Shown: positions 22,659 to 54,107 of the stretch, in pieces
Numbering within the stretch: position 1 is the stretch's first letter
Layout: each line of letters opens with the position of its first letter
NCBI GenBank assembly: GCA_040388415.1
Contig: JAZKBV010000002.1
Span: 63,383 to 127,382 of the forward strand
DNA from: Patescibacteria group bacterium
GTDB taxonomy: Bacteria > Patescibacteriota > Minisyncoccia > Phycocordibacterales > PALSA-1337
DNA: 64,000 bases
Reading direction: 5' to 3'
Notes under the pieces: generated by a model
Told to the model about the DNA's origin: nothing
The model's database searches: none
Seen by the model: the letters and a program-made list of their open reading frames with translations, nothing else
Position numbers and translations under genes: made by a program

Positions 22659-23765
22659 TTAGCGGTTCATAGGCATCACTAAATACATGAATGTGCCGTC
22701 ACCTGAGGCTGGACGAATAACCATAGGCTTATTGAGACCACCGAGCTGGAAAGAAACACTGTCAGCATCGATGGACTGGAAACAATCAGCGATATATTTG
22801 CCATTAAAATTGATCTCAAGCTTATCACCTGTCATAGAAGCATCGACTTTTGTTGCATTTTCGCCGATATCAGCATTTTTTGTCTGAATCTCGAAACCAG
22901 CACCCTTTGGGTCGAGGATAAATTTTACTTGATTGAATTTATCAGTAAACACATTTGAAACCTTGAGTGCATTAATAACATCTTGTTTGAGAGTGATCGC
23001 TTCGGTGCTATACCCTTTTGGAATAATCTGCTTATAATCAGGAAATGTGCCATCAACTATACGAGATGCGAGATATACCCCTTGAGCTTCAAATGAAATA
23101 AGATTTTTATTTGAATGCATCTCTACGTCACCGCCCACATCTTCTAATATACGAATAATGTCACTGATATTTTTAAAAGGAATGAGAATATCTTGAAAAT
23201 CTATATCTGTGCCGACTTTTACTTTTTTCTCAGCCAAACGGAAAGAGTCTGTTGCTGCAAAAGTGATAAATTCATTGTTCTTATACACATACACACTTGA
23301 AAGCTCTGGTTTTACACTTGAGATCGATGCGCTATACCAGACTGATTTGAGGCCTTTAATGAAGACTTCTGATGAGATAGTCACCTTTTGTCCTTCACTT
23401 ACACGAGGAATTGATGGAAAATCTTCTGCGGGCACGGTTTTTATGGTCACTTTTGAACGAGCTGATGAAATATTAAGATTTCCTGAAACAAGCTCCATTT
23501 TTACCGTTCCATCTTGATCATTTAACTGGGAAACAAAAGATGATATGGTCTGAGCGGGTATAGCAACTGTTCCTGTTGTGTCCGACTTTGCTGGAATAGA
23601 GATTTCAAGACCAACATCAAGATTCGTCGCTTTGATGTGGAGTGTATTTTTTCCTATTTCAAACAATAGACATGAGAGGACAGGAAGTGTTGCGTTCTTA
23701 CGCGCGATCTTCTCTGATAACCCGATCATTCTTTTGAATTGTGATAGATGTAATTCGATTTTCAT
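22659..23765 (-). CDS. dnaN: DNA polymerase III beta subunit (sliding clamp)
   Basis: 368 aa with a three-domain clamp architecture. N-terminus MKIELHLSQFKRMIGLSEKIA...LPVLSCLLFE. Confidence 0.9.
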   Translation of the reverse strand: MKIELHLSQFKRMIGLSEKIARKNATLPVLSCLLFEIGKNTLHIKATNLDVGLEISIPAKSDTTGTVAIPAQTISSFVSQLNDQDGTVKMELVSGNLNISSARSKVTIKTVPAEDFPSIPRVSEGQKVTISSEVFIKGLKSVWYSASISSVKPELSSVYVYKNNEFITFAATDSFRLAEKKVKVGTDIDFQDILIPFKNISDIIRILEDVGGDVEMHSNKNLISFEAQGVYLASRIVDGTFPDYKQIIPKGYSTEAITLKQDVINALKVSNVFTDKFNQVKFILDPKGAGFEIQTKNADIGENATKVDASMTGDKLEINFNGKYIADCFQSIDADSVSFQLGGLNKPMVIRPASGDGTFMYLVMPMNR

Positions 23766-23964
23766 ATAAAACAGTTTATTGCTATTAGTCTTGTGGATAT
23801 GGGGAAAAGTTTTTAGATAGTCTGGTTGAGCTTTATTTTTTAATTTCTATTTTTTATTTCTGTGGGTATCCTTGTGCAACTTCTAACTCCAAACCTTTAA
23901 CTCCAAACTTCTTCCCAACTTCTCCCTACCCTATTCCTACTTTATCCGATACTTATCAACAGGT
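23766..23964. promoter_or_regulatory. candidate oriC segment (dnaA-dnaN intergenic; degenerate DnaA boxes plus AT-rich DUE)
   Basis: TGTGGATAT (23791), TGTGGGTAT (23862), TTATCCGAT (23942) and TTATCAACA (23952), plus the AT-rich tract ctttattttttaatttctattttttatttc. Confidence 0.45.
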
Positions 23965-25311
23965 TTATAACATAGTTCTTAGCTGAGAAATTTCTTGTGC
24001 CAATAACGGGTTGCCTTTCACATCCTCCTTTATCTTTTCGTATGAGTGAATAACGGTAGTATGGTCTCGACCACCCATTTTATCCCCAATCGAAGGAAAT
24101 GAGATATTAAAATCTTCACGGAGGATATACATAGCTACTTGGCGTGGCTTAACCACCTCCTTTCTGCGAGTTTTGTTGTATATACTCTCTTCTTCGATGT
24201 TATAGAAATCAGATACGATCTTTACCACCTCCTTCACAGAAATATTTTTCTTTGGCTTAGCATTATTCTTGAGGAGATACTTGATCTCATTCAAATTCAA
24301 ATCTCTATTCTTGAGTTGTATCTGACAAGCGATGACATTGATGATACCTTCGATCTCGCGAATATTGTCCTCAATTTCTGATGCAAGAAACTCCACGATC
24401 TCATCAGATAGGTTGATGTTATGTATACGAGACTTGGCACGTACGATCGCGGTGCGTGACTCATGGTCAGGTTCAGGTATATCAACAGTCATACCTACCC
24501 CAAATCTACCTCTAATACGATCCTCGAGTCCTGGAATAACGTTTGGATGGCGATCTGAGGAGAATACAAGCTGGCGGCCAGTGTCATGGAAGGTATTAAA
24601 GAGGTGAAAGAGTTCCTCCTGAAACTTTTCTTTACCTGAGAAGAACTGTACATCATCCATAATGACCACATCATACTTGCGGTACTTTTCTTTGAACTGC
24701 TGAGTCTTGTTTTCTTGGAATGAATTCAATAAATCAGACCCAAATTTCTCTGAAGTAAGGTAGAATACTTTTTTATTTGGGTGGAGGCGCTTAATCTGGT
24801 TCCCTATCGCTTGGATGAGGTGTGTTTTTCCACGACCAGGTGATCCATAAATGAAGAGTGGGTTGTATGTCTGCCCAGGATTCTTGATGACTGTCTGCGA
24901 GGCTGCGTGAGCGAGCTCATTGAACGGTCCAATGACGAAGTTTTCGAAGGTATAGCGCGGATTGAGGTTATCCTCTTTGTTGATATAGAAGTCTTGAAGA
25001 GGCATAGCCATCGTTGGAGATGAGATAGGCTTCTTTTGAGCCGCTTCCTTGCTACGATCACCGTCCTTGATGATGACATAATCAAGCGCGCGGACGTTTT
25101 CGTTGATTTGACGAAGTATTTTAAGGATAGAATTGTGACATTTCTTTGAAAGCCACTCACGCGTGAACTCATTTGGCACTCCAAGGAAGACAACACCCTC
25201 ATTTTCCTTCACTATCTTGGTTGTTGAGAGCCATGTCGTGTAGTTTGCAGCAGAAACAATACCCTTTATCTCTATGAGAGCAGTTTGCCAGATTTGAGAA
25301 TAGTCATTCAT
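23965..25311 (-). CDS. dnaA: chromosomal replication initiator protein DnaA
   Basis: AAA+ Walker A GSPGRGKTHLIQAIGN, Walker B VVIMDDVQF, sensor region, and the C-terminal DNA-binding helix KPRQVAMYILRE...IGDKMGGRDHTTVIHSYEKI. Confidence 0.93.
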   Translation of the reverse strand: MNDYSQIWQTALIEIKGIVSAANYTTWLSTTKIVKENEGVVFLGVPNEFTREWLSKKCHNSILKILRQINENVRALDYVIIKDGDRSKEAAQKKPISSPTMAMPLQDFYINKEDNLNPRYTFENFVIGPFNELAHAASQTVIKNPGQTYNPLFIYGSPGRGKTHLIQAIGNQIKRLHPNKKVFYLTSEKFGSDLLNSFQENKTQQFKEKYRKYDVVIMDDVQFFSGKEKFQEELFHLFNTFHDTGRQLVFSSDRHPNVIPGLEDRIRGRFGVGMTVDIPEPDHESRTAIVRAKSRIHNINLSDEIVEFLASEIEDNIREIEGIINVIACQIQLKNRDLNLNEIKYLLKNNAKPKKNISVKEVVKIVSDFYNIEEESIYNKTRRKEVVKPRQVAMYILREDFNISFPSIGDKMGGRDHTTVIHSYEKIKEDVKGNPLLAQEISQLRTML

Positions 25312-25477
25312 AGGTGTATATAGGTAATGAGTAATAGAGGTTTAAGTAGCTATAAGTATATACTTGTTTATAAGTTTGCAAACTTGTGGAGAGCTTATAA
25401 ATATGTTGATAAGTTGGGGACAGTAAATAAGAACACAGATTATGTGTTTCAGGCTTGCGAAATAGTAGATTTTCATC

Positions 25478-25483
25478 TATAGT
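25478..25483 (+). promoter_or_regulatory. -10 box (TATAGT) 7 nt upstream of the rpmH ATG (leaderless pattern)
   Basis: tatagt, then gttacct, then ATG at 25491. Confidence 0.3.
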
Positions 25484-25490
25484 GTTACCT

Positions 25491-25640
25491 ATGTCATTTA
25501 CATATCAACCAAACAAGCGCAAGCGCGCAAAGGCACACGGTTTTCGTATGCGCATGAAAACTCCTACAGGACGAAAAGTTCTCGCTAAACGTCGTGCAAA
25601 AGGACGTGCGAAGCTCACTGTTAGCAAGAAACGCGTTTAG
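25491..25640 (+). CDS. rpmH: 50S ribosomal protein L34
   Basis: [44 protein letters not shown] is the L34 consensus. The tracked ORF starts upstream at 25455. Confidence 0.88.
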
Positions 25641-25654
25641 TTTATATTTTCAAT

Positions 25655-26017
25655 ATGCTTAAAAGCATTCATAGGCTCTCCACAAAGCAGTTTATGGAAG
25701 TCATGGAAAAAGGGAAAATCGCAACCTCTCCCCTTTTTGTTGTGCGTATATTGGAAAGGAAGTTGGGAGTTGGAAGTTTGAAGCAAGGGGAAGGCTCACA
25801 AATCTCTGCAGTAGCACCAAAAAAAGTTGCATCGACGGCGGTGTTGAGAAATAGGGTGCGTCGGCAGATTTATGAGGCTGTAAGACCGCTCAGAGCCACC
25901 CTTCTGCCTGCGACAGCAATCATCATCTTTGCAAAAAATGAAGCCTTGAAAACAAATCTAAGGTCTATGACCTCAGATCTCAAGCAACTTTTCGTTAAAG
26001 CGAAAATTAGTGTATAG
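25655..26017 (+). CDS. rnpA: ribonuclease P protein component
   Basis: 120 aa basic protein directly downstream of rpmH. Contains the RNR-like motif AVLRNRVRRQIYEA. Confidence 0.8.
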   Translation: MLKSIHRLSTKQFMEVMEKGKIATSPLFVVRILERKLGVGSLKQGEGSQISAVAPKKVASTAVLRNRVRRQIYEAVRPLRATLLPATAIIIFAKNEALKTNLRSMTSDLKQLFVKAKISV

Positions 26018-26018
26018 T
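26011..26018 (+). promoter_or_regulatory. extended -10 element (TGtATAGT) 7 nt upstream of the yidC ATG (leaderless pattern)
   Basis: tgtatagt, then tagccgt, then ATG at 26026. Confidence 0.3.
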
Positions 26019-26025
26019 TAGCCGT

Positions 26026-26781
26026 ATGTACAATACATTTATATTTAAACCCCTTTATAACGGGCTCGTTGCTATCATGGATCTGTTGCCATGGATCGAT
26101 GTGGGCATTGCGGTCATCCTCTTTACTATTATTGTCCGCCTCATCATCTTTCCTCTCTCAAAGAACGCCCTGTTGACTCAGGTAAAAATGAAAGAAGTGG
26201 AGCCCGAAGTGAACAAAGTAAAGGCAGAATATGCCAATGATCGCCAGGCACAAGGCCTCAAGGTTATGGAACTATACAAATCAAAAGGCATCAAGCCCTT
26301 TTCTGGCGTTCTGCTCCTCATAGTTCAGCTCCCTATCCTTCTTGCGCTCATCTCTGTTTTCTATAAGATCATACCAACGATTGACCCGAACCTTCTTTAT
26401 AGTTTTGTTCATGTTCCTGTGATTAAACCGTTTCTACTTGGGCTAGATTTGACCAAGCCAAACATAATTCTTTCTCTGGTTACAGGCATCATCCAGTTTT
26501 TTCAGATGCATTATTCTATCGCTTCACGCCAACACCGAGAAATGGTGGCAAAAAATGACGGTAAACTTCCCACAGCAACAGATTTTTCATCGAATATGGC
26601 AAATACCATGAATACACAGATGAAATTCCTTCTTCCTATTATTGCCTTTGCTTCAACATACTGGCTCATTCCAGTAAAATTCCCTCAGGCAGCATCGATC
26701 ATTGCCATTTATTGGTCTATTAGCTCCCTCTTTACTCTTGGTCAGGAGTTATACATCAGAAAAAAGCATCTGACCAAATAA
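26026..26781 (+). CDS. yidC: membrane protein insertase YidC (short, Gram-positive-type)
   Basis: 251 aa in the rpmH-rnpA-yidC arrangement. FIFKPLYNGLVAIMDLL...ILFTIIVRLIIFPL and multiple TM helices typical of YidC/Oxa1. Confidence 0.85.
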   Translation: MYNTFIFKPLYNGLVAIMDLLPWIDVGIAVILFTIIVRLIIFPLSKNALLTQVKMKEVEPEVNKVKAEYANDRQAQGLKVMELYKSKGIKPFSGVLLLIVQLPILLALISVFYKIIPTIDPNLLYSFVHVPVIKPFLLGLDLTKPNIILSLVTGIIQFFQMHYSIASRQHREMVAKNDGKLPTATDFSSNMANTMNTQMKFLLPIIAFASTYWLIPVKFPQAASIIAIYWSISSLFTLGQELYIRKKHLTK

Positions 26782-49356: not shown

Positions 49357-49854
49357 ATGAATACAAAGAAAGTGCTCGGAGTTGATATTGGCAACGTTAT
49401 TATAAATAACCGTCTCAATGATCCTGAAGTCAATGAAGTTGATGAGGCTGTTTACGCCGCTTTTCCTCCGTCGGAGGGCGTATTTGAGGCATTGAAGATT
49501 TTAAATGATTATTTTGATGGCGAGGTTTATCTGATCTCAAAATGTACTGAGTGGGCACAAATACAAATTTTGGCATGGCTCGCTACGCATGATTTTTATA
49601 ATAAAACAGGCATTAAACCAGAACATGTTAATTTTGTGAGAAAACGCAACGAAAAAGATGCCGTCTGTATAAAATTAGGGGTTACGCATTTTGTCGATGA
49701 TCGTCTGGAAGTCTTGGGTTATATGGTCGAATCAACACCAAACCTCATTTTGTTTCAACCAGATCAAGTGGAGATGGAGGAATTTAAACAGTTTTTGCCC
49801 CACGTCACTGTCACCAATAACTGGAACGAGGTTGTGAAACAGATTATTAAATAA
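49357..49854 (+). CDS. hypothetical protein; weak resemblance to NT5C-type HAD-like nucleotidases or RNase-H-fold (YqgF-like) proteins
   Basis: N-terminal VLGVDIGNVII (hhGxDxG-like), VYLISKCTEW, and HFVDDRLEVL. The HAD motif I is degenerate (DIG instead of DxD). Assignment uncertain. Confidence 0.35.
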   Translation: MNTKKVLGVDIGNVIINNRLNDPEVNEVDEAVYAAFPPSEGVFEALKILNDYFDGEVYLISKCTEWAQIQILAWLATHDFYNKTGIKPEHVNFVRKRNEKDAVCIKLGVTHFVDDRLEVLGYMVESTPNLILFQPDQVEMEEFKQFLPHVTVTNNWNEVVKQIIK

Positions 49855-49864
49855 TTTTGAGACA

Positions 49865-50773
49865 ATGAAAGCAGAATCACAGCCAGTGTATGACGTGCTC
49901 CCCCAAGAAAATAACTTGGTGGAAAAATATCACCCAAAATTTCTTGCTTGTGGCGGGGATCATTTGGTTTATGAAATTCCTGAGCACCCTGATGTTGTCG
50001 TCAAAGCATCAACATTCAGGATTAAAGATATTTTGGTGGATAATGCCGAGCATGGTGTTCCGCTCGACTCACTTTCAGATGGTATGAGAGAGTTTGTCGG
50101 TACTGAATTGAAAGAAAAAGACGAACAGTCGAGAAATTTGAGAAATTATTTTGGTAATGAACATACGCTGGCAGAGCGACGTTTTCTTATGAAAGTTCCT
50201 GTAACAGGAGAAATAGTAGCTGACATTTTCAAAGATGACTGGAAAGGGCGAGTGCCACCAGAAGATTCTTTAAATATGAATGAAGCCTGGTCATCTGTTA
50301 CTGTTCAACAGCGTGCAGAGGCCATCAATGATCCAAAGCATCTAAGTCTCAATTTCGAAGGGTTTCTCGAGGAAGATAAATATGATGATACGGCTATACA
50401 GCATATTCTTACTTTGTCTGAAAACAACCCTGCTCTCAGGGACTCTCTAAAAGAATTTGTTAGTAAGGCAGTTTCATATGCCAATGAAACAGGAAATATT
50501 CTTGCTATGGCCGGAAAGGATAACATTATCTTCTATAAGGATCCTGAAAATGGTGAGAAATGGAATTATTTGCTCGTTGACGCACTTTCTATCCACAATG
50601 AACCCGTCTTCAAGGTCGCGCAGGAAATCTCATTGAAGATAATAAATGGTGAGAAAATAACTCCGCATGAGCAGACACTTTTGATGAAAGCCCTAAATTT
50701 CACGAGGACAATAAATAATATTGCGTCTGCACTCGGTATGAGTGAGCATTTGGGTTTACAGACAGAGTTGTAA
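49865..50773 (+). CDS. hypothetical protein with protein-kinase-like fold features
   Basis: Gly-rich loop plus Lys (FLACGGDHLVYEIPEHPDVVVKAS). Putative catalytic segment ILAMAGKDNIIFYK. Putative metal-binding WNYLLVDALS. Atypical order of catalytic residues. Confidence 0.35.
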   Translation: MKAESQPVYDVLPQENNLVEKYHPKFLACGGDHLVYEIPEHPDVVVKASTFRIKDILVDNAEHGVPLDSLSDGMREFVGTELKEKDEQSRNLRNYFGNEHTLAERRFLMKVPVTGEIVADIFKDDWKGRVPPEDSLNMNEAWSSVTVQQRAEAINDPKHLSLNFEGFLEEDKYDDTAIQHILTLSENNPALRDSLKEFVSKAVSYANETGNILAMAGKDNIIFYKDPENGEKWNYLLVDALSIHNEPVFKVAQEISLKIINGEKITPHEQTLLMKALNFTRTINNIASALGMSEHLGLQTEL

Positions 50774-50779
50774 TTTTAC

Positions 50780-51304
50780 TTACAAAGAGAACCCAATCTT
50801 CTCTTTAGGCTTCTTCTCCTCAACGGTCAGATGTTTCAGTACGTTGAATATCTCATAAATGTGCTTATCGTACTTTCTTTCCATTTGTTCAACTTTTTCT
50901 GCAAGTTTCTTATTTTCAGCCAGTATTTCACGAAGTTTTGTGAAGGTACGAATGATCTGGATATTGACTTGGATCGCGTGCGGGCTTTTGAGAACGCTCG
51001 AAAGCATAGCGACACCTTGTTCAGTGAAAACGGTAGGTGAATACTTGATATTCTCACCTCTTTTCAAGGTCACAATTTGTGACCTTGGACGTTGCTGATA
51101 GTAAAGAATAGTTTCTTGTGGAGATAATTTAAACATAAAATCTCCAGGGAATCTTTCAAGATTTCTTTTGACTGCTTGATTTAAGACTTTCGTTTCTACC
51201 CCATATAGCTCAGCAAGGTCTCTATCAATTAGTACTTTTTTACCCCGGATAAAAAATATCTTACTAAGCACAGTCTCATTTGGAATCGTTACTAATATAT
51301 TCAT
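50780..51304 (-). CDS. ORF6N (KilA-N-related) DNA-binding domain protein
   Basis: The N-terminal ...KVLIDRDLAELYGVETKVLNQAVKRNLERFPGDFMFKLS matches the ORF6N domain commonly found in phage anti-repressor-like proteins. C-terminal coiled coil. Confidence 0.6.
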   Translation of the reverse strand: MNILVTIPNETVLSKIFFIRGKKVLIDRDLAELYGVETKVLNQAVKRNLERFPGDFMFKLSPQETILYYQQRPRSQIVTLKRGENIKYSPTVFTEQGVAMLSSVLKSPHAIQVNIQIIRTFTKLREILAENKKLAEKVEQMERKYDKHIYEIFNVLKHLTVEEKKPKEKIGFSL

Positions 51305-51587
51305 TATTTTTTTGTGTATTATTCGGTAATGATTTTTTACCTTTTATTTTAATAGCTCCAGTTTTTATTCTTGTCCTCTTATTTACTTTTATCGCACTTT
51401 CGTTCTCTGGTGGTGTTACATCAATAAACTTCGCACCCATCGATTCAAATTGCTTGACAAAGAACCAGTGTATCGGAGGTATGACCTCATTACATGATCT
51501 GCAGATGTATGTAGATTCGTCTACAACTATTGGATTCTTACAATCATGCCAACAACCAGACTTGTTGGTCTTTGTATTTTTACCCAT
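51276..51587 (-). CDS. hypothetical small Cys4 zinc-ribbon protein
   Basis: CWHDC...CRSC motif, with a Lys-rich C-terminus. Overlaps the ORF6N gene start by 29 nt. An antisense ORF 51280-51591 (+) is considered spurious. Confidence 0.35.
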   Translation of the reverse strand: MGKNTKTNKSGCWHDCKNPIVVDESTYICRSCNEVIPPIHWFFVKQFESMGAKFIDVTPPENESAIKVNKRTRIKTGAIKIKGKKSLPNNTQKNNEYISNDSK

Positions 51588-51783
51588 ATAAATTTTTAGT
51601 TAACTAACAATTAATAAATCATCCCGATTTCCCTCTTCCTGCAAAATAGATCGCCATACGGCTTATCCGTACCATTGCGTAATGTAATAATTGTACCAAA
51701 CAAAAAAATCTCGAGAACTTCCGTTCTGAGATTTTCTGTTTTCTAGTAGCGTAATTTTTAGAAATTAGACAGTAAGAAATTCT

Positions 51784-52422: not shown

Positions 52423-52689
52423 CTATTTCTTGAGATCCAACTTCTTGATGATAGTTGCGTAACGCTTTGGGTTACTTTTCTTCAAATAGACGAGGTGAGA
52501 CTGGCGATCAGCAACCATACCGAGGAGACCACGGCGTGAGTGGTTGTCTTTCTTGTGCTTACGGAGGTGTGAAGTAAGCTCATCAATGCGCTTGGTCAAA
52601 ATAGCGACCTGAACTTCAGGAGAACCTGTGTCCTTGTCGTGAATTGCTGTTTCTTTGATGATTTTGGTCTTTTGACGTGTGCTTAACAT
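52423..52689 (-). CDS. rpsO: 30S ribosomal protein S15
   Basis: 88 aa: ...GSPEVQVAILTKRIDELTSHLRKHKKDNHSRRGLLGMVADRQSHLVYLKK..., the S15 consensus. Confidence 0.9.
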   Translation of the reverse strand: MLSTRQKTKIIKETAIHDKDTGSPEVQVAILTKRIDELTSHLRKHKKDNHSRRGLLGMVADRQSHLVYLKKSNPKRYATIIKKLDLKK

Positions 52690-52828
52690 AGTTGAAACAT
52701 CATAGCATGAACCGTGGAGAGGTGCAAGTTTCTTATTAAAATATGGTTTAAGTCGTTTTTGAATATAGTAAAACCCGATTCACACTTATTACAACCACTC
52801 AGTGCGTTGTTCGTGTGAATCGGGTTAC

Positions 52829-53110
52829 AAGGGCTGGCCGCCGGCGGTTAATGCGGAATATGATTGCCGGTGATGGGCGCGCCGTTGTTGGGGCCGGAAT
52901 TTTTCTCGGAGTGCGTGTTGAGGTTAACAGGCGGGTCGTGGGTCTTCATGGCTTATAGCCCTTTCTTTGGATGTGACGCAAGCAAGGCCTGCGAGCGTCG
53001 TCGTTTACCGCATGCTTTTTACAGCATGGAATAATCCTGATGGTCAGACCTGTCCCTAGCATGGACGAGAGGTTCCTCAAAGATCATTCGCTGTGTATCA
53101 TAGCACACCC
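52829..53110. other. GC-rich (~55-60%) non-coding segment with long-range complementarity; candidate structured RNA or foreign DNA remnant
   Basis: Composition contrasts sharply with the ~40% GC flanks. AAGGGCT (52829-35) pairs with AGCCCTT (52957-63). Local hairpins (catgctttttacagcatg; palindromes gccggc and ggcgcgcc). A flanking 14-bp perfect hairpin at 52763-52827. No ORF of 60 aa or more on either strand. Confidence 0.3.
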
Positions 53111-53168
53111 ACAATATTTGTCAAGTATTCTAAAATATGTCTTGATTTTGTAGCTTAAAATCCGTGCA

Positions 53169-53177
53169 TGCTACAAT
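53169..53177 (+). promoter_or_regulatory. extended -10 element (TGcTACAAT) 6 nt upstream of the xerD ATG (leaderless pattern)
   Basis: tgctacaat, then ataccc, then ATG at 53184. Nearly identical in architecture to the ruvA promoter (tgctataat ctaccc ATG). Confidence 0.35.
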
Positions 53178-53183
53178 ATACCC

Positions 53184-54107
53184 ATGTCGCACAATCTCAG
53201 AGACCTGAAACAGCAATTCCTCGAATATATTGAGATAGAACGCGGTCGCTCCGTCAAAACCGTTGAGAACTATGATCGTTACCTCACTCGCTTCCTCAAC
53301 TATTCAAAGGCAAAGTCACCAAGCGATATCACTGAAAATGTTATTCGCGAGTTCCGTCTGTGGCTCAATCGTCAGCCAGCCAGTGAAAATAGCAGATCGA
53401 CCGCTACGCTCAAGAAGAAAACGCAGAACTACTACCTCATTTCCTTGCGTGCCTTCCTCAAGTATCTTGCAAAGCGTGGAGTTAAGGCTGTTTCACCCGA
53501 ATATATTGAGCTCGCCAAAGTTGGCGATCGTCATCTCGACCTCATAACCAAAGAAGAGCTCTCTCGCCTGCTCAAGTCGACTGACGGTGATGATTTGAGG
53601 TCTATGCGTGACAAAGCTATCCTCGAAACACTCTTTTCTACTGGTCTGCGTGTATCTGAGCTCTGTTCCCTCTCTCGTGATATCGACCTGTCGAGTGATG
53701 AACTCTCTGTTCGTGGTAAAGGTGAAAAGATCCGCGTGGTTTTCATGTCAGATGAAGCAAAACGCTCCATCAAGCGCTATTTGGATAAGCGTCCTGATAT
53801 TGACGGTGCCCTTTTTGTGAAGATCTCTGGTGAAGAACGAAAAATGAAAGAAGAGGATCTCGGGCTCTCAACGCGTCAGATAGAGAGAATCATCAAGCAT
53901 TACGCTATCAAAGCGGGTATTTCAAAAAAAGTGACACCCCACGTCATTCGCCATATGTTTGCCACTGACCTTCTGGGTAATGGTGCTGACCTCCGTTCAG
54001 TACAGATGTTGCTTGGTCACTCCAATATTTCAACGACACAGATTTATACGCACGTGACGGATAGTGAGCTGAAACGAGTACATAAGCAGTTTCATAATAA
54101 GAAGTAA
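53184..54107 (+). CDS. xerD: tyrosine recombinase XerC/XerD family
   Basis: Phage-integrase N-terminal SAM-like domain (FLEYIEIERGRSVKTVENYDRYL), catalytic R...HxxR...Y: ...HVIRHMFATDLL...LLGHSNISTTQIYTHV. Confidence 0.85.
   Translation: MSHNLRDLKQQFLEYIEIERGRSVKTVENYDRYLTRFLNYSKAKSPSDITENVIREFRLWLNRQPASENSRSTATLKKKTQNYYLISLRAFLKYLAKRGVKAVSPEYIELAKVGDRHLDLITKEELSRLLKSTDGDDLRSMRDKAILETLFSTGLRVSELCSLSRDIDLSSDELSVRGKGEKIRVVFMSDEAKRSIKRYLDKRPDIDGALFVKISGEERKMKEEDLGLSTRQIERIIKHYAIKAGISKKVTPHVIRHMFATDLLGNGADLRSVQMLLGHSNISTTQIYTHVTDSELKRVHKQFHNKK

Follow-up and report, generated by a model that had tools for sequence, protein, structure and literature searches.

The divergently transcribed genes rpsO (ribosomal protein S15) and xerD (a tyrosine recombinase of the XerA/XerD type) are separated by a spacer of 494 bp in the window, meaning the whole stretch of 64,000 nt from a Patescibacteria group bacterium that was analysed here and to which all coordinates refer. 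Within this spacer, the segment at 52829-53110 had been flagged by an earlier, sequence-only reading as a possible undescribed structured RNA with about 55–60% GC against about 40% elsewhere. The island is real, with 54.3% GC over 52829-53110 and 58.7% over 52829-53000, against 43.9% for the whole window. GC content this high or higher occurs in 0.33% of 282-nt and 0.02% of 172-nt stretches. Compared with its dinucleotide shuffles, the 401-nt stretch 52740-53140 gave z = -4.5 on the plus strand and -3.7 on the minus strand, and none of 100 shuffles equalled it.

We read the island as a self-contained minus-strand mini-gene that would comprise a promoter, a folded leader, a 33-codon reading frame and a terminator, and place the probability of this reading at about 0.6. 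The mini-gene most likely belongs to an undescribed, fast-evolving family found at the same spot in related ultra-small bacteria of the candidate phyla radiation (CPR). The parts of the putative unit, its four helices (P1 to P4) and the genes on either side are as follows.

52423-52689, minus strand: rpsO, encoding S15
52699-52727, minus strand: rpsO's own promoter, read from the sequence as TTGCAC, 17 nt and the extended -10 element TGC-TATGAT (TGCTATGAT)
52768-52826, minus strand: terminator-like hairpin, its arms (52826-52813 and 52785-52772) pairing perfectly over 14 bp around an inner stem, then UUUU-AC
52827-52888, minus strand: helix P4, interrupted and GC-rich, with 5' arm 52888-52866, loop 52865-52846 and 3' arm 52845-52827
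52848-52949, minus strand: small open reading frame (sORF) of 33 codons and a stop, starting at 52949, MKTHDPPVNLNTHSEKNSGPNNGAPITGNHIPH; tryptic peptides of its product would be THDPPVNLNTHSEK and NSGPNNGAPITGNHIPH
52959-52964, minus strand: Shine-Dalgarno (SD)-like AAAGGG, read from the sequence; it lies 9 nt 5' of the AUG, where the RNA is A-rich and single-stranded
52975-52999, minus strand: hairpin P3, GACGC..GCAG / UUGC..GCGUC, 10 pairs
53011-53028, minus strand: hairpin P2, CAUGCU GUAAAA AGCAUG, 6 pairs
53029-53090, minus strand: P1 domain, with the 5'-terminal helix 53089-53080 paired to 53038-53029
about 53090, minus strand: predicted 5' end of the transcript (CGAAUGAUC...), placed from the position of the -10 element
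53097-53124, minus strand: mini-gene promoter, with -35 TTGACA (53124-53119), a 16-nt spacer and the extended -10 TGnTATGAT (hexamer 53102-53097)
53184-54107, plus strand: xerD

In a promoter scan the mini-gene promoter matched the consensus at 11 of 12 positions and carried the TG extension as well. The block TACTTGACAAATA...TGCTATGAT is kept in L001, L003, L007, L082, L087, L095, L124 and L129 (L001 to L130 are labels of the relatives' loci or contigs that were compared with the window; labels such as P0135 denote proteins). A minus-strand transcription unit of about 320 nt, running roughly from 53090 to 52768 between the back-to-back promoters of xerD and rpsO, is thus the most likely arrangement. 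No convincing antisense promoter was found in the promoter scan, where the sole plus-strand candidate scored 9 of 12.

The flanking genes are organised differently. The ATG of rpsO stands 9 nt past its -10 hexamer, which leaves the rpsO mRNA nearly leaderless, and xerD has TGC-TACAAT 6 nt before its ATG (53169-53186). Neither gene has an SD sequence, whereas the sORF has both a long leader and an SD. Both flanking mRNAs therefore appear to be leaderless, and the flagged segment would be a third, separate unit between their promoters. Whether or not they carry the insert, relatives have the rpsO promoter block in identical or nearly identical form, and it marks the downstream boundary of the mini-gene. 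The earlier suggestion of a leader regulating xerD or rpsO does not fit this layout: the predicted transcript runs away from xerD, and it ends in a hairpin and U-tract upstream of rpsO's own promoter, which suffices for rpsO in relatives with a total spacer of just 45-120 bp.

RNA helices and the 33-codon frame

The leader of the putative transcript is about 140 nt long, and relative to L082, one of the closest relatives of the unit, its indels are 1, 1, 2 and 4 nt, which argues that it is non-coding. A consensus for P1 to P3 was built on five leaders of the window type (the window, L082, L129, L130 and L095). P1 begins at the second nucleotide of the predicted transcript, and 6 of its 10 pairs have changed on both sides among the five leaders. 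Inside it are a small hairpin and internal loops that are conserved (GAGGAACCUCUCGUC / CAGGUCUGACC); these loops are invariant in the window's subfamily, while the interior of P1 varies between subfamilies. All six pairs of P2 are formed in five of five leaders, with one both-side change and U-A/U-G variation, and eight of the ten pairs of P3 show both-side changes. Taken together, 92.6% of cells in the leader helices are paired, versus 28–41% when the partners are slid by 1-3 columns, and both-side changes occur in 16 of 32 leader pairs, versus 0-6 in the slid controls. Of 500 shuffles, none reached any of the covariation measures. On this alignment P1, P2 and P3 are kept by compensatory changes. 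The earlier proposal of an undescribed structured RNA region is supported, and as a reading of the whole segment it is half right. Many G-U pairs of the leader helices would be A-C mismatches if read on the plus strand, and the RNA strand is therefore the minus strand.

Beyond the window's subfamily, long-range pairing of nucleotides 2-9 beats downstream shuffles (at most 5 in 100) in 12 of 15 family leaders. Distant subfamilies retain the 5'-terminal stem with other sequences, such as AUGACCUA/UAGGUCAU in L054 and GUGACCUAU/AUAGGUCAC in L012. Predicted folds leave the SD unsequestered. A covariance model made from three leaders was too narrow and recovered only its seeds and L084 (E=0.04). 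The long-range arms noted earlier, AAGGGCT at 52829-35 and AGCCCTT at 52957-63, are present as placed; their pairing is lost in L082 and L007, and they were not counted as structure.

Downstream of the leader, P4 pairs ACAA-CGGC..CCGGC in the frame with GCCGG..GCC..UUGU past the stop. Its 5' arm lies within codons 21-28, and the stop codon (52850-52848) is in its loop. The P4 consensus was obtained with RNAalifold on the four members of the window's type, referred to below as type A. By eye, the GCC/GGC of the window is ACC/GGU in L097, while RNAalifold puts the changes elsewhere. Compared with shuffles, pairing across the stop codon stands out in the window (1 of 100) and, at a limit of 9 of 100, in about 11 of 17 members, and a helix across the stop codon is predicted in most family members. 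P4 accounts for the conservation of the last third of the frame at every codon position. The overlap of P4 with the frame likewise explains both the GC island and the GC-rich third positions of the sORF. The GC content of these third positions (GC3) is 0.76, compared with a mean of 0.45 (range 0.33-0.53) for 22 window genes, so the contrast that had been noted is genuine; the label of foreign to this genome does not hold, as the frame is the conserved one and GC3 is 0.57-0.79 across the sORF family. GC richness is a trait of the family, with no sign of foreign origin.

The terminator-like hairpin follows directly 3' of P4 and is present in all four type-A members (the window, L082, L097 and L007). 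Among them a single A-U pair is exchanged for U-A, and there are several G-U changes. A perfect 14-bp hairpin had already been reported here; it is real, with its arms at 52772-52785 and 52813-52826 instead of 52763-52827, and two of the U that were taken to follow it belong to the stem. A terminator consensus scan did not flag it because its loop exceeds 8 nt.

The 33-codon frame had also been seen before, one base away from its position at 52949 to 52848 (stop included). Several properties suggest that it is most likely translated and is the conserved frame of the unit. An AUG opens the frame in 21 of 21 family members, and AAAGG or GGAG stands 4-9 nt 5' of this AUG in 16 of the 19 members listed. 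Frame 0 is open for 25-45 codons in all 21, whereas frame +1 is closed at once and frame +2 is open for 1-82. Orthologues of the sORF are found in L082 (36 aa), L007 (34 aa) and L097 (partial), with length differences that are multiples of three; between the window and L082 the frame has indels of 3 and 6 nt, and start and stop are in the same places. Between these two, K2, P6, P7 and L10 are encoded by differing synonymous codons, and across the family the codons of the Pro-Pro or Pro-Ser site, which falls within the first seven codons, vary at their third positions. In 97 distinct spacers the N-terminal motif M[NKT]x0-3[SGDA]P[PS] was counted 19 times on the sORF strand and not once on the opposite strand. 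Beside this motif only the short peptide motifs KNSG and NNGxPxTG / GAGTG are kept, and the conserved C-terminal codons fall within P4. The peptide is hydrophilic and has no hydrophobic stretch. IMG gene callers label two homologues (P0135 and P0149) as 'hypothetical protein'.

The sORF is not the only frame of the region, as had been claimed, since further open reading frames (ORFs) of 30-56 aa occur on both strands; these are unconserved in relatives. Antisense ORFs on the plus strand (56 aa) have neither start nor end conserved, and a 44-aa ORF over the leader (52946-53080, minus strand) is broken in L082 by indels of 1-2 nt.

Relatives of the unit and turnover at the locus

A scan of a genome collection with the recombinase as query gave 80 species-level relatives, in 72 of which rpsO and xer are divergent neighbours. 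The spacer between them measures 45-153 bp in 43 of the 72 and 241-1428 bp in the other 29. Short spacers, such as those of L002 and L081 (76 bp), are entirely occupied by the two promoters. More contigs came from exact look-ups of S15 variants, and one from a metagenome pattern scan for the promoter and leader. A metagenome scan with a degenerate codon pattern for the NSG..NNG.PITG core gave no match.

About 20 distinct spacers, from Paceibacterota metagenome-assembled genomes and metagenome contigs, share the window's architecture on the same strand. It consists of the promoter block TACTTGACAA(A/T), a transcript start (C/A)GAAUGAUC, the folded leader, an SD in most members, an ORF 25-45 codons long, high GC content around its stop, and a hairpin. 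Among the GTDB relatives it is found in L003, L007, L012, L025, L049, L054, L059 and L079; the S15 look-ups added L082, L084, L087, L094, L095, L097, L099, L116, L119, L124, L125, L129 and L130. The same locus thus holds this architecture in relatives whose XerD is 66-99% identical. Closest to the window are the other type-A members (core NNGxPxTG), namely L082, L097 (partial) and L007, and L085 and L086 are identical to it. In the subset of loci scanned for it, the leader motif was seen only in the rpsO-xer spacer, and the window has it once.

Turnover at the locus is rapid. Relatives with the same S15 differ in what the spacer holds: L081 has no unit, the window and L082 have type A, L084 has type B with an additional module carrying a micro-ORF, and L001 has the micro-ORF module by itself. 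Against this background the comparison of the window with L082 is informative. Their XerD proteins are 99% identical and their NYN and S15 proteins 100%, while xer and NYN share 74-75% of their third codon positions. Relative to this yardstick, the identities along the unit are as follows.

P1-P2: 91%
P3 and SD region: 61%, with compensatory changes
sORF codons 1-17: 61%
stretch after the stop codon: 95%
terminator: 91%

The folded ends, with identities above the yardstick, are therefore under purifying selection. The N-terminal half of the peptide, on the other hand, is evolving faster than neighbouring synonymous sites, as far as this comparison goes. Over xer, NYN and rpsO the window and L082/L083 are about 83–91% identical in DNA and 99–100% in protein, a sign that purifying selection on XerD, NYN and S15 is unusually strong in this clade.

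The micro-ORF module was noted in many relatives 3' of the sORF; the window is without it. The micro-ORF has 5-8 codons behind a strong SD and reads MKPFT*, MRPFT*, MKPFYS*, MKTTKPFY* or MKKTKPFY* (asterisk, stop), with synonymous variation in its codons (AAA/AAG, CCA/CCT/CCC, TTT/TTC, ACT/ACG/ACC). It lies at 3701-3900 in L001, 2290-2470 in L084 and 1350-1500 in L088, and also in the spacer upstream of rpsO in L094, L095, L099, L116, L119, L124 and L130. In several relatives it is followed by a conserved region of about 75 nt, GGUUGAGGUUGG...AACGAAACCAAAA...ACCCCAUUCCYARAAAAC, and then by a terminator. The module has no Rfam match, and from its sequence it looks like a conserved leader-peptide device.

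Known systems and alternative explanations

The comparison of the segment with RNase P RNA, tmRNA, signal recognition particle RNA and riboswitches in the sequence-only reading, which had found no match, agrees with Rfam and ARAGORN. No Rfam family matched the spacer at its gathering score or at E<=10 (52650-53250), and in the whole window only tRNAs pass. The best sub-threshold scores in 52650-53250 were SNORA51 with 18.9 bits (against a cutoff of 50) and Spd-sr37 with 15.8 (against 45). ARAGORN found no tmRNA, and the spacers of the homologous loci likewise had no Rfam match. The resemblance to 6S RNA that had been considered was not found: there is no 6S match at E<=10, and the unit is predicted as a string of five separate helices with a single-stranded SD and AUG, not as one rod with a central bubble. 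At the protein level, the sORF peptide had no phmmer match among 1.8 billion protein representatives, Pfam, NCBIfam and PHROGs had no match to the sORF peptides, and a profile of 18 family peptides matched only two proteins, both from loci already in the family set. Searches of the literature turned up no report of such elements in Patescibacteria.

The best description of the element is that of a new family within a known kind, a putative structured mRNA for a small protein. RNAs that act both through their structure and through a small protein include RNAIII/hld of Staphylococcus aureus, SR1/SR1P of Bacillus subtilis and SgrS/SgrT of Escherichia coli. The unit resembles them in its transcript of about 300 nt with its own predicted promoter and terminator, its conserved structure and its embedded frame of at most 45 codons. 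It is unlike them in having no sequence or Rfam relation to them, and in that part of the frame forms a conserved helix around the stop. The 5'-terminal stem-loops of the ompA 5' untranslated region, the B. subtilis aprE leader and ermC stabilise their mRNAs. P1 is similar in that its helix starts 1 nt from the predicted 5' end, covaries across subfamilies and is followed by an exposed ribosome-binding site. It differs in the invariant internal loops of the window's subfamily, which would equally suit a binding site, and its stabilising role is drawn from this likeness. Regulatory leader ORFs that rely on proline codons are represented by mgtL and mgtP of Salmonella, and XPPX motifs cause pauses that depend on elongation factor P. 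With these the unit shares a short ORF with an early Pro-Pro or Pro-Ser site within a structured RNA, but it has no downstream gene under control of the sORF, and pausing would be suggested by analogy.

Some further classes were considered for the peptide and the RNA. The motifs APITG (window), LPDTG (L082) and LPITG (L007) recall sortase substrates, yet the peptides are without a signal peptide and have only 5-9 residues after the motif. The LPXTG-like codons (..CACCGGC) are the inner arm of P4, and the motif is treated as coincidental. A type I toxin was rejected, as the peptide is hydrophilic and no convincing antisense promoter is present. As regards precursors of ribosomally synthesized and post-translationally modified peptides or of bacteriocins, the sORF product has a short conserved N-terminus and a variable remainder, and no modifying enzyme or transporter was found among the locus neighbours. 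As regards riboswitches, P1 of the window's subfamily has covarying stems and invariant loops; its interior differs in other subfamilies, the SD is free in the predicted folds, and no known aptamer matches.

With the unit read as a mini-gene that is strongly promoted and has an mRNA folded over nearly its whole length, a possible course of its expression can be outlined. Like the ompA and aprE leaders, P1 may shield the mRNA from decay that depends on the 5' end. Ribosomes would load at the open SD and would have to melt P4 to reach the stop codon, and P4 together with the terminator hairpin may form a stable 3' end that also insulates rpsO. The output could be the peptide itself, or the act of translating the Pro-Pro/Pro-Ser site into P4. 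If the peptide is functional, it would be a fast-evolving accessory peptide, because its divergence exceeds that of neighbouring synonymous sites.

A number of observations weigh against the mini-gene reading, and several of them speak for a purely non-coding small RNA whose 33-codon frame is incidental or is translated without a functional product. Outside their short motifs the peptides are hypervariable (mean column identity of alignment A3, 25%), and no protein family or homologue was found beyond the locus. In the type-A core (GGC..AAC AAC GGC..ACC GGC) third positions are invariant in four members, which places the constraint there at the nucleotide level; this is the 3' half of the frame, in P4. 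In L125, and identically in L127 and L128, the frame is cut short by a premature stop although the downstream RNA is intact, and the leader is the best-conserved part of the unit. The presence of an AUG in all members with an SD 4-9 nt upstream in most, the consistently open frame ending in or beside the P4 loop, the frame indels in multiples of three as opposed to those of the leader, and the third-position variation of the P-P/P-S codons all argue for translation, and we consider the non-coding reading unlikely. Further points against the mini-gene concern the evidence itself. The third-position argument equally fits an antisense frame with coinciding third positions, and such a frame was rejected only on its unconserved ends and on having no promoter, SD or terminator. 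The covariation test is based on just five leaders and four 3' halves, the U-tract of the terminator is short (UUUU, of which two U form the last stem pairs), and the start and 3' end of the transcript, like its translation, are predictions from sequence.

The position of the unit immediately upstream of rpsO, always co-oriented with it, would be compatible with a cis-regulatory leader or attenuator of rpsO, for instance one with an S15-binding mimic, in which read-through of the hairpin would tune rpsO-NYN-pnp. It shares this placement with the S15 autoregulatory leaders in Rfam. The short U-tract would suit such a role, as would the covarying stems and invariant internal loops of the 5' domain, which are often found in protein-binding RNAs. 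However, the terminator-like hairpin (52826-52772) and the rpsO promoter intervene, and that extended -10 promoter with its nearly leaderless start is present in every relative, including the majority without the unit (spacers of 45-120 bp). On a read-through RNA the internal rpsO AUG would be without an SD, no Rfam family, S15 leaders included, matches 52650-53250 at E<=10, and P1 has a different interior from one subfamily to another. A leader of rpsO thus appears very unlikely. The more speculative notion, to which we give somewhat more room but which is still distinctly improbable, is that of an undescribed translation-coupled riboregulator in the Paceibacteria rpsO-xer spacer, or of the hypervariable peptide as a diversifying secreted factor of episymbionts. 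As a riboregulator, the RNA of about 300 nt would be remodelled when a ribosome pauses at the early Pro-Pro and then melts the stop-codon helix. In many relatives the RNA would also carry the micro-ORF (MKPFT or MKxxKPFY) and a further conserved domain, and the device might sense translational capacity beside the S15-NYN-PNPase genes.

The sequence-only reading had also offered a horizontally acquired remnant, and a mobile element in the form of an integron-like cassette or an insertion exploiting Xer was weighed accordingly. Presence and absence of the unit and shuffling of modules among relatives with identical S15 would be expected of such an element, and the GC content is unlike that of the genome. 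As with integron cassettes, variable small modules lie past a fixed promoter that fires away from the adjoining tyrosine recombinase gene, and each ORF is followed by a palindromic GC-rich element. Nevertheless, the recombinase is of the XerA/XerD type and not an integron integrase (XerA_Arch NF040815, 242 bits against a cutoff of 220; XerD, 246; integron integrase TIGR02249, 126.8 against a cutoff of 265), and there are no attC-type sites or defined boundaries. The unit occurs in one copy per locus and, in the loci scanned, never outside the rpsO-xer spacer, with promoter and leader orthologous across relatives with 66-99% identical XerD, and L001 looks like an internal deletion derivative, not an excision at defined sites. 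No BLAST match to the segment was found in plasmid and phage collections, a result that equally speaks against the contaminant or vector origin raised earlier, and three pattern scans of viral contigs gave nothing or chance matches inside coding DNA of phage contigs with 60–66% GC. A dif site or terminus region was rejected as well, since short spacers are filled by the two promoters and the locus lies about 28 kb from dnaA-dnaN and the GC-skew minimum. Of all the explanations considered, a mobile remnant seems to us the least probable.

As a self-contained mini-gene, the unit would represent an unannotated gene family in genomes of about 0.7–0.9 Mb, where each retained accessory element is informative. 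Pfam, NCBIfam, PHROGs and Rfam have no entry for the family, and its sORF is seldom called by gene callers. It would illustrate cleanly how the same bases can be constrained both by a frame and by RNA helices, and how an island that looks foreign is explained without horizontal transfer. Care should be taken with GC-rich intergenic islands flagged as non-coding RNA, as these may be structured mRNAs of small proteins. The locus varies among relatives with 99–100% identical flanking proteins and is on that account a candidate site of diversifying selection in CPR bacteria. We regard its interest as moderate, lying in the overlap of coding and structure, the fast turnover between highly conserved housekeeping genes and the CPR setting.

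Neighbouring genes and other variable features

The genes around the spacer are pnp, ORF6N, NYN, rpsO, xer, exoIII and that of the CCA enzyme. In L081-L083 pnp directly follows NYN, whereas in the window extra genes occupy about 2.4 kb between the two (49357-51590), comprising two ORFs without a Pfam match (165 and 302 aa), an ORF6N protein (50780-51304, minus strand) and a 103-aa ORF. Other relatives have ORF6N, Bro-N or DUF3800 genes at the NYN-pnp spot, which is a second variable spot nearby.

On the other side of the spacer, Xer is called as a 726-aa product in two close relatives, L088 (1-960) and L123 (1-606). Two Phage_integrase segments flank Intein_splicing and LAGLIDADG domains in this product, so that an intein splits the housekeeping recombinase in these two. 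In L084 an AdoCbl-II (cobalamin) riboswitch match (235-297; 38.3 bits, gathering score 36.5) precedes a gene for a DUF6580/ECF-type transporter next to xer, and this riboswitch is not present in the window. Further along the window, dnaN, dnaA, rnpA and yidC are clustered at 22659-26781 and the GC skew changes sign at about 22–24 kb, so that this is probably the replication origin region.

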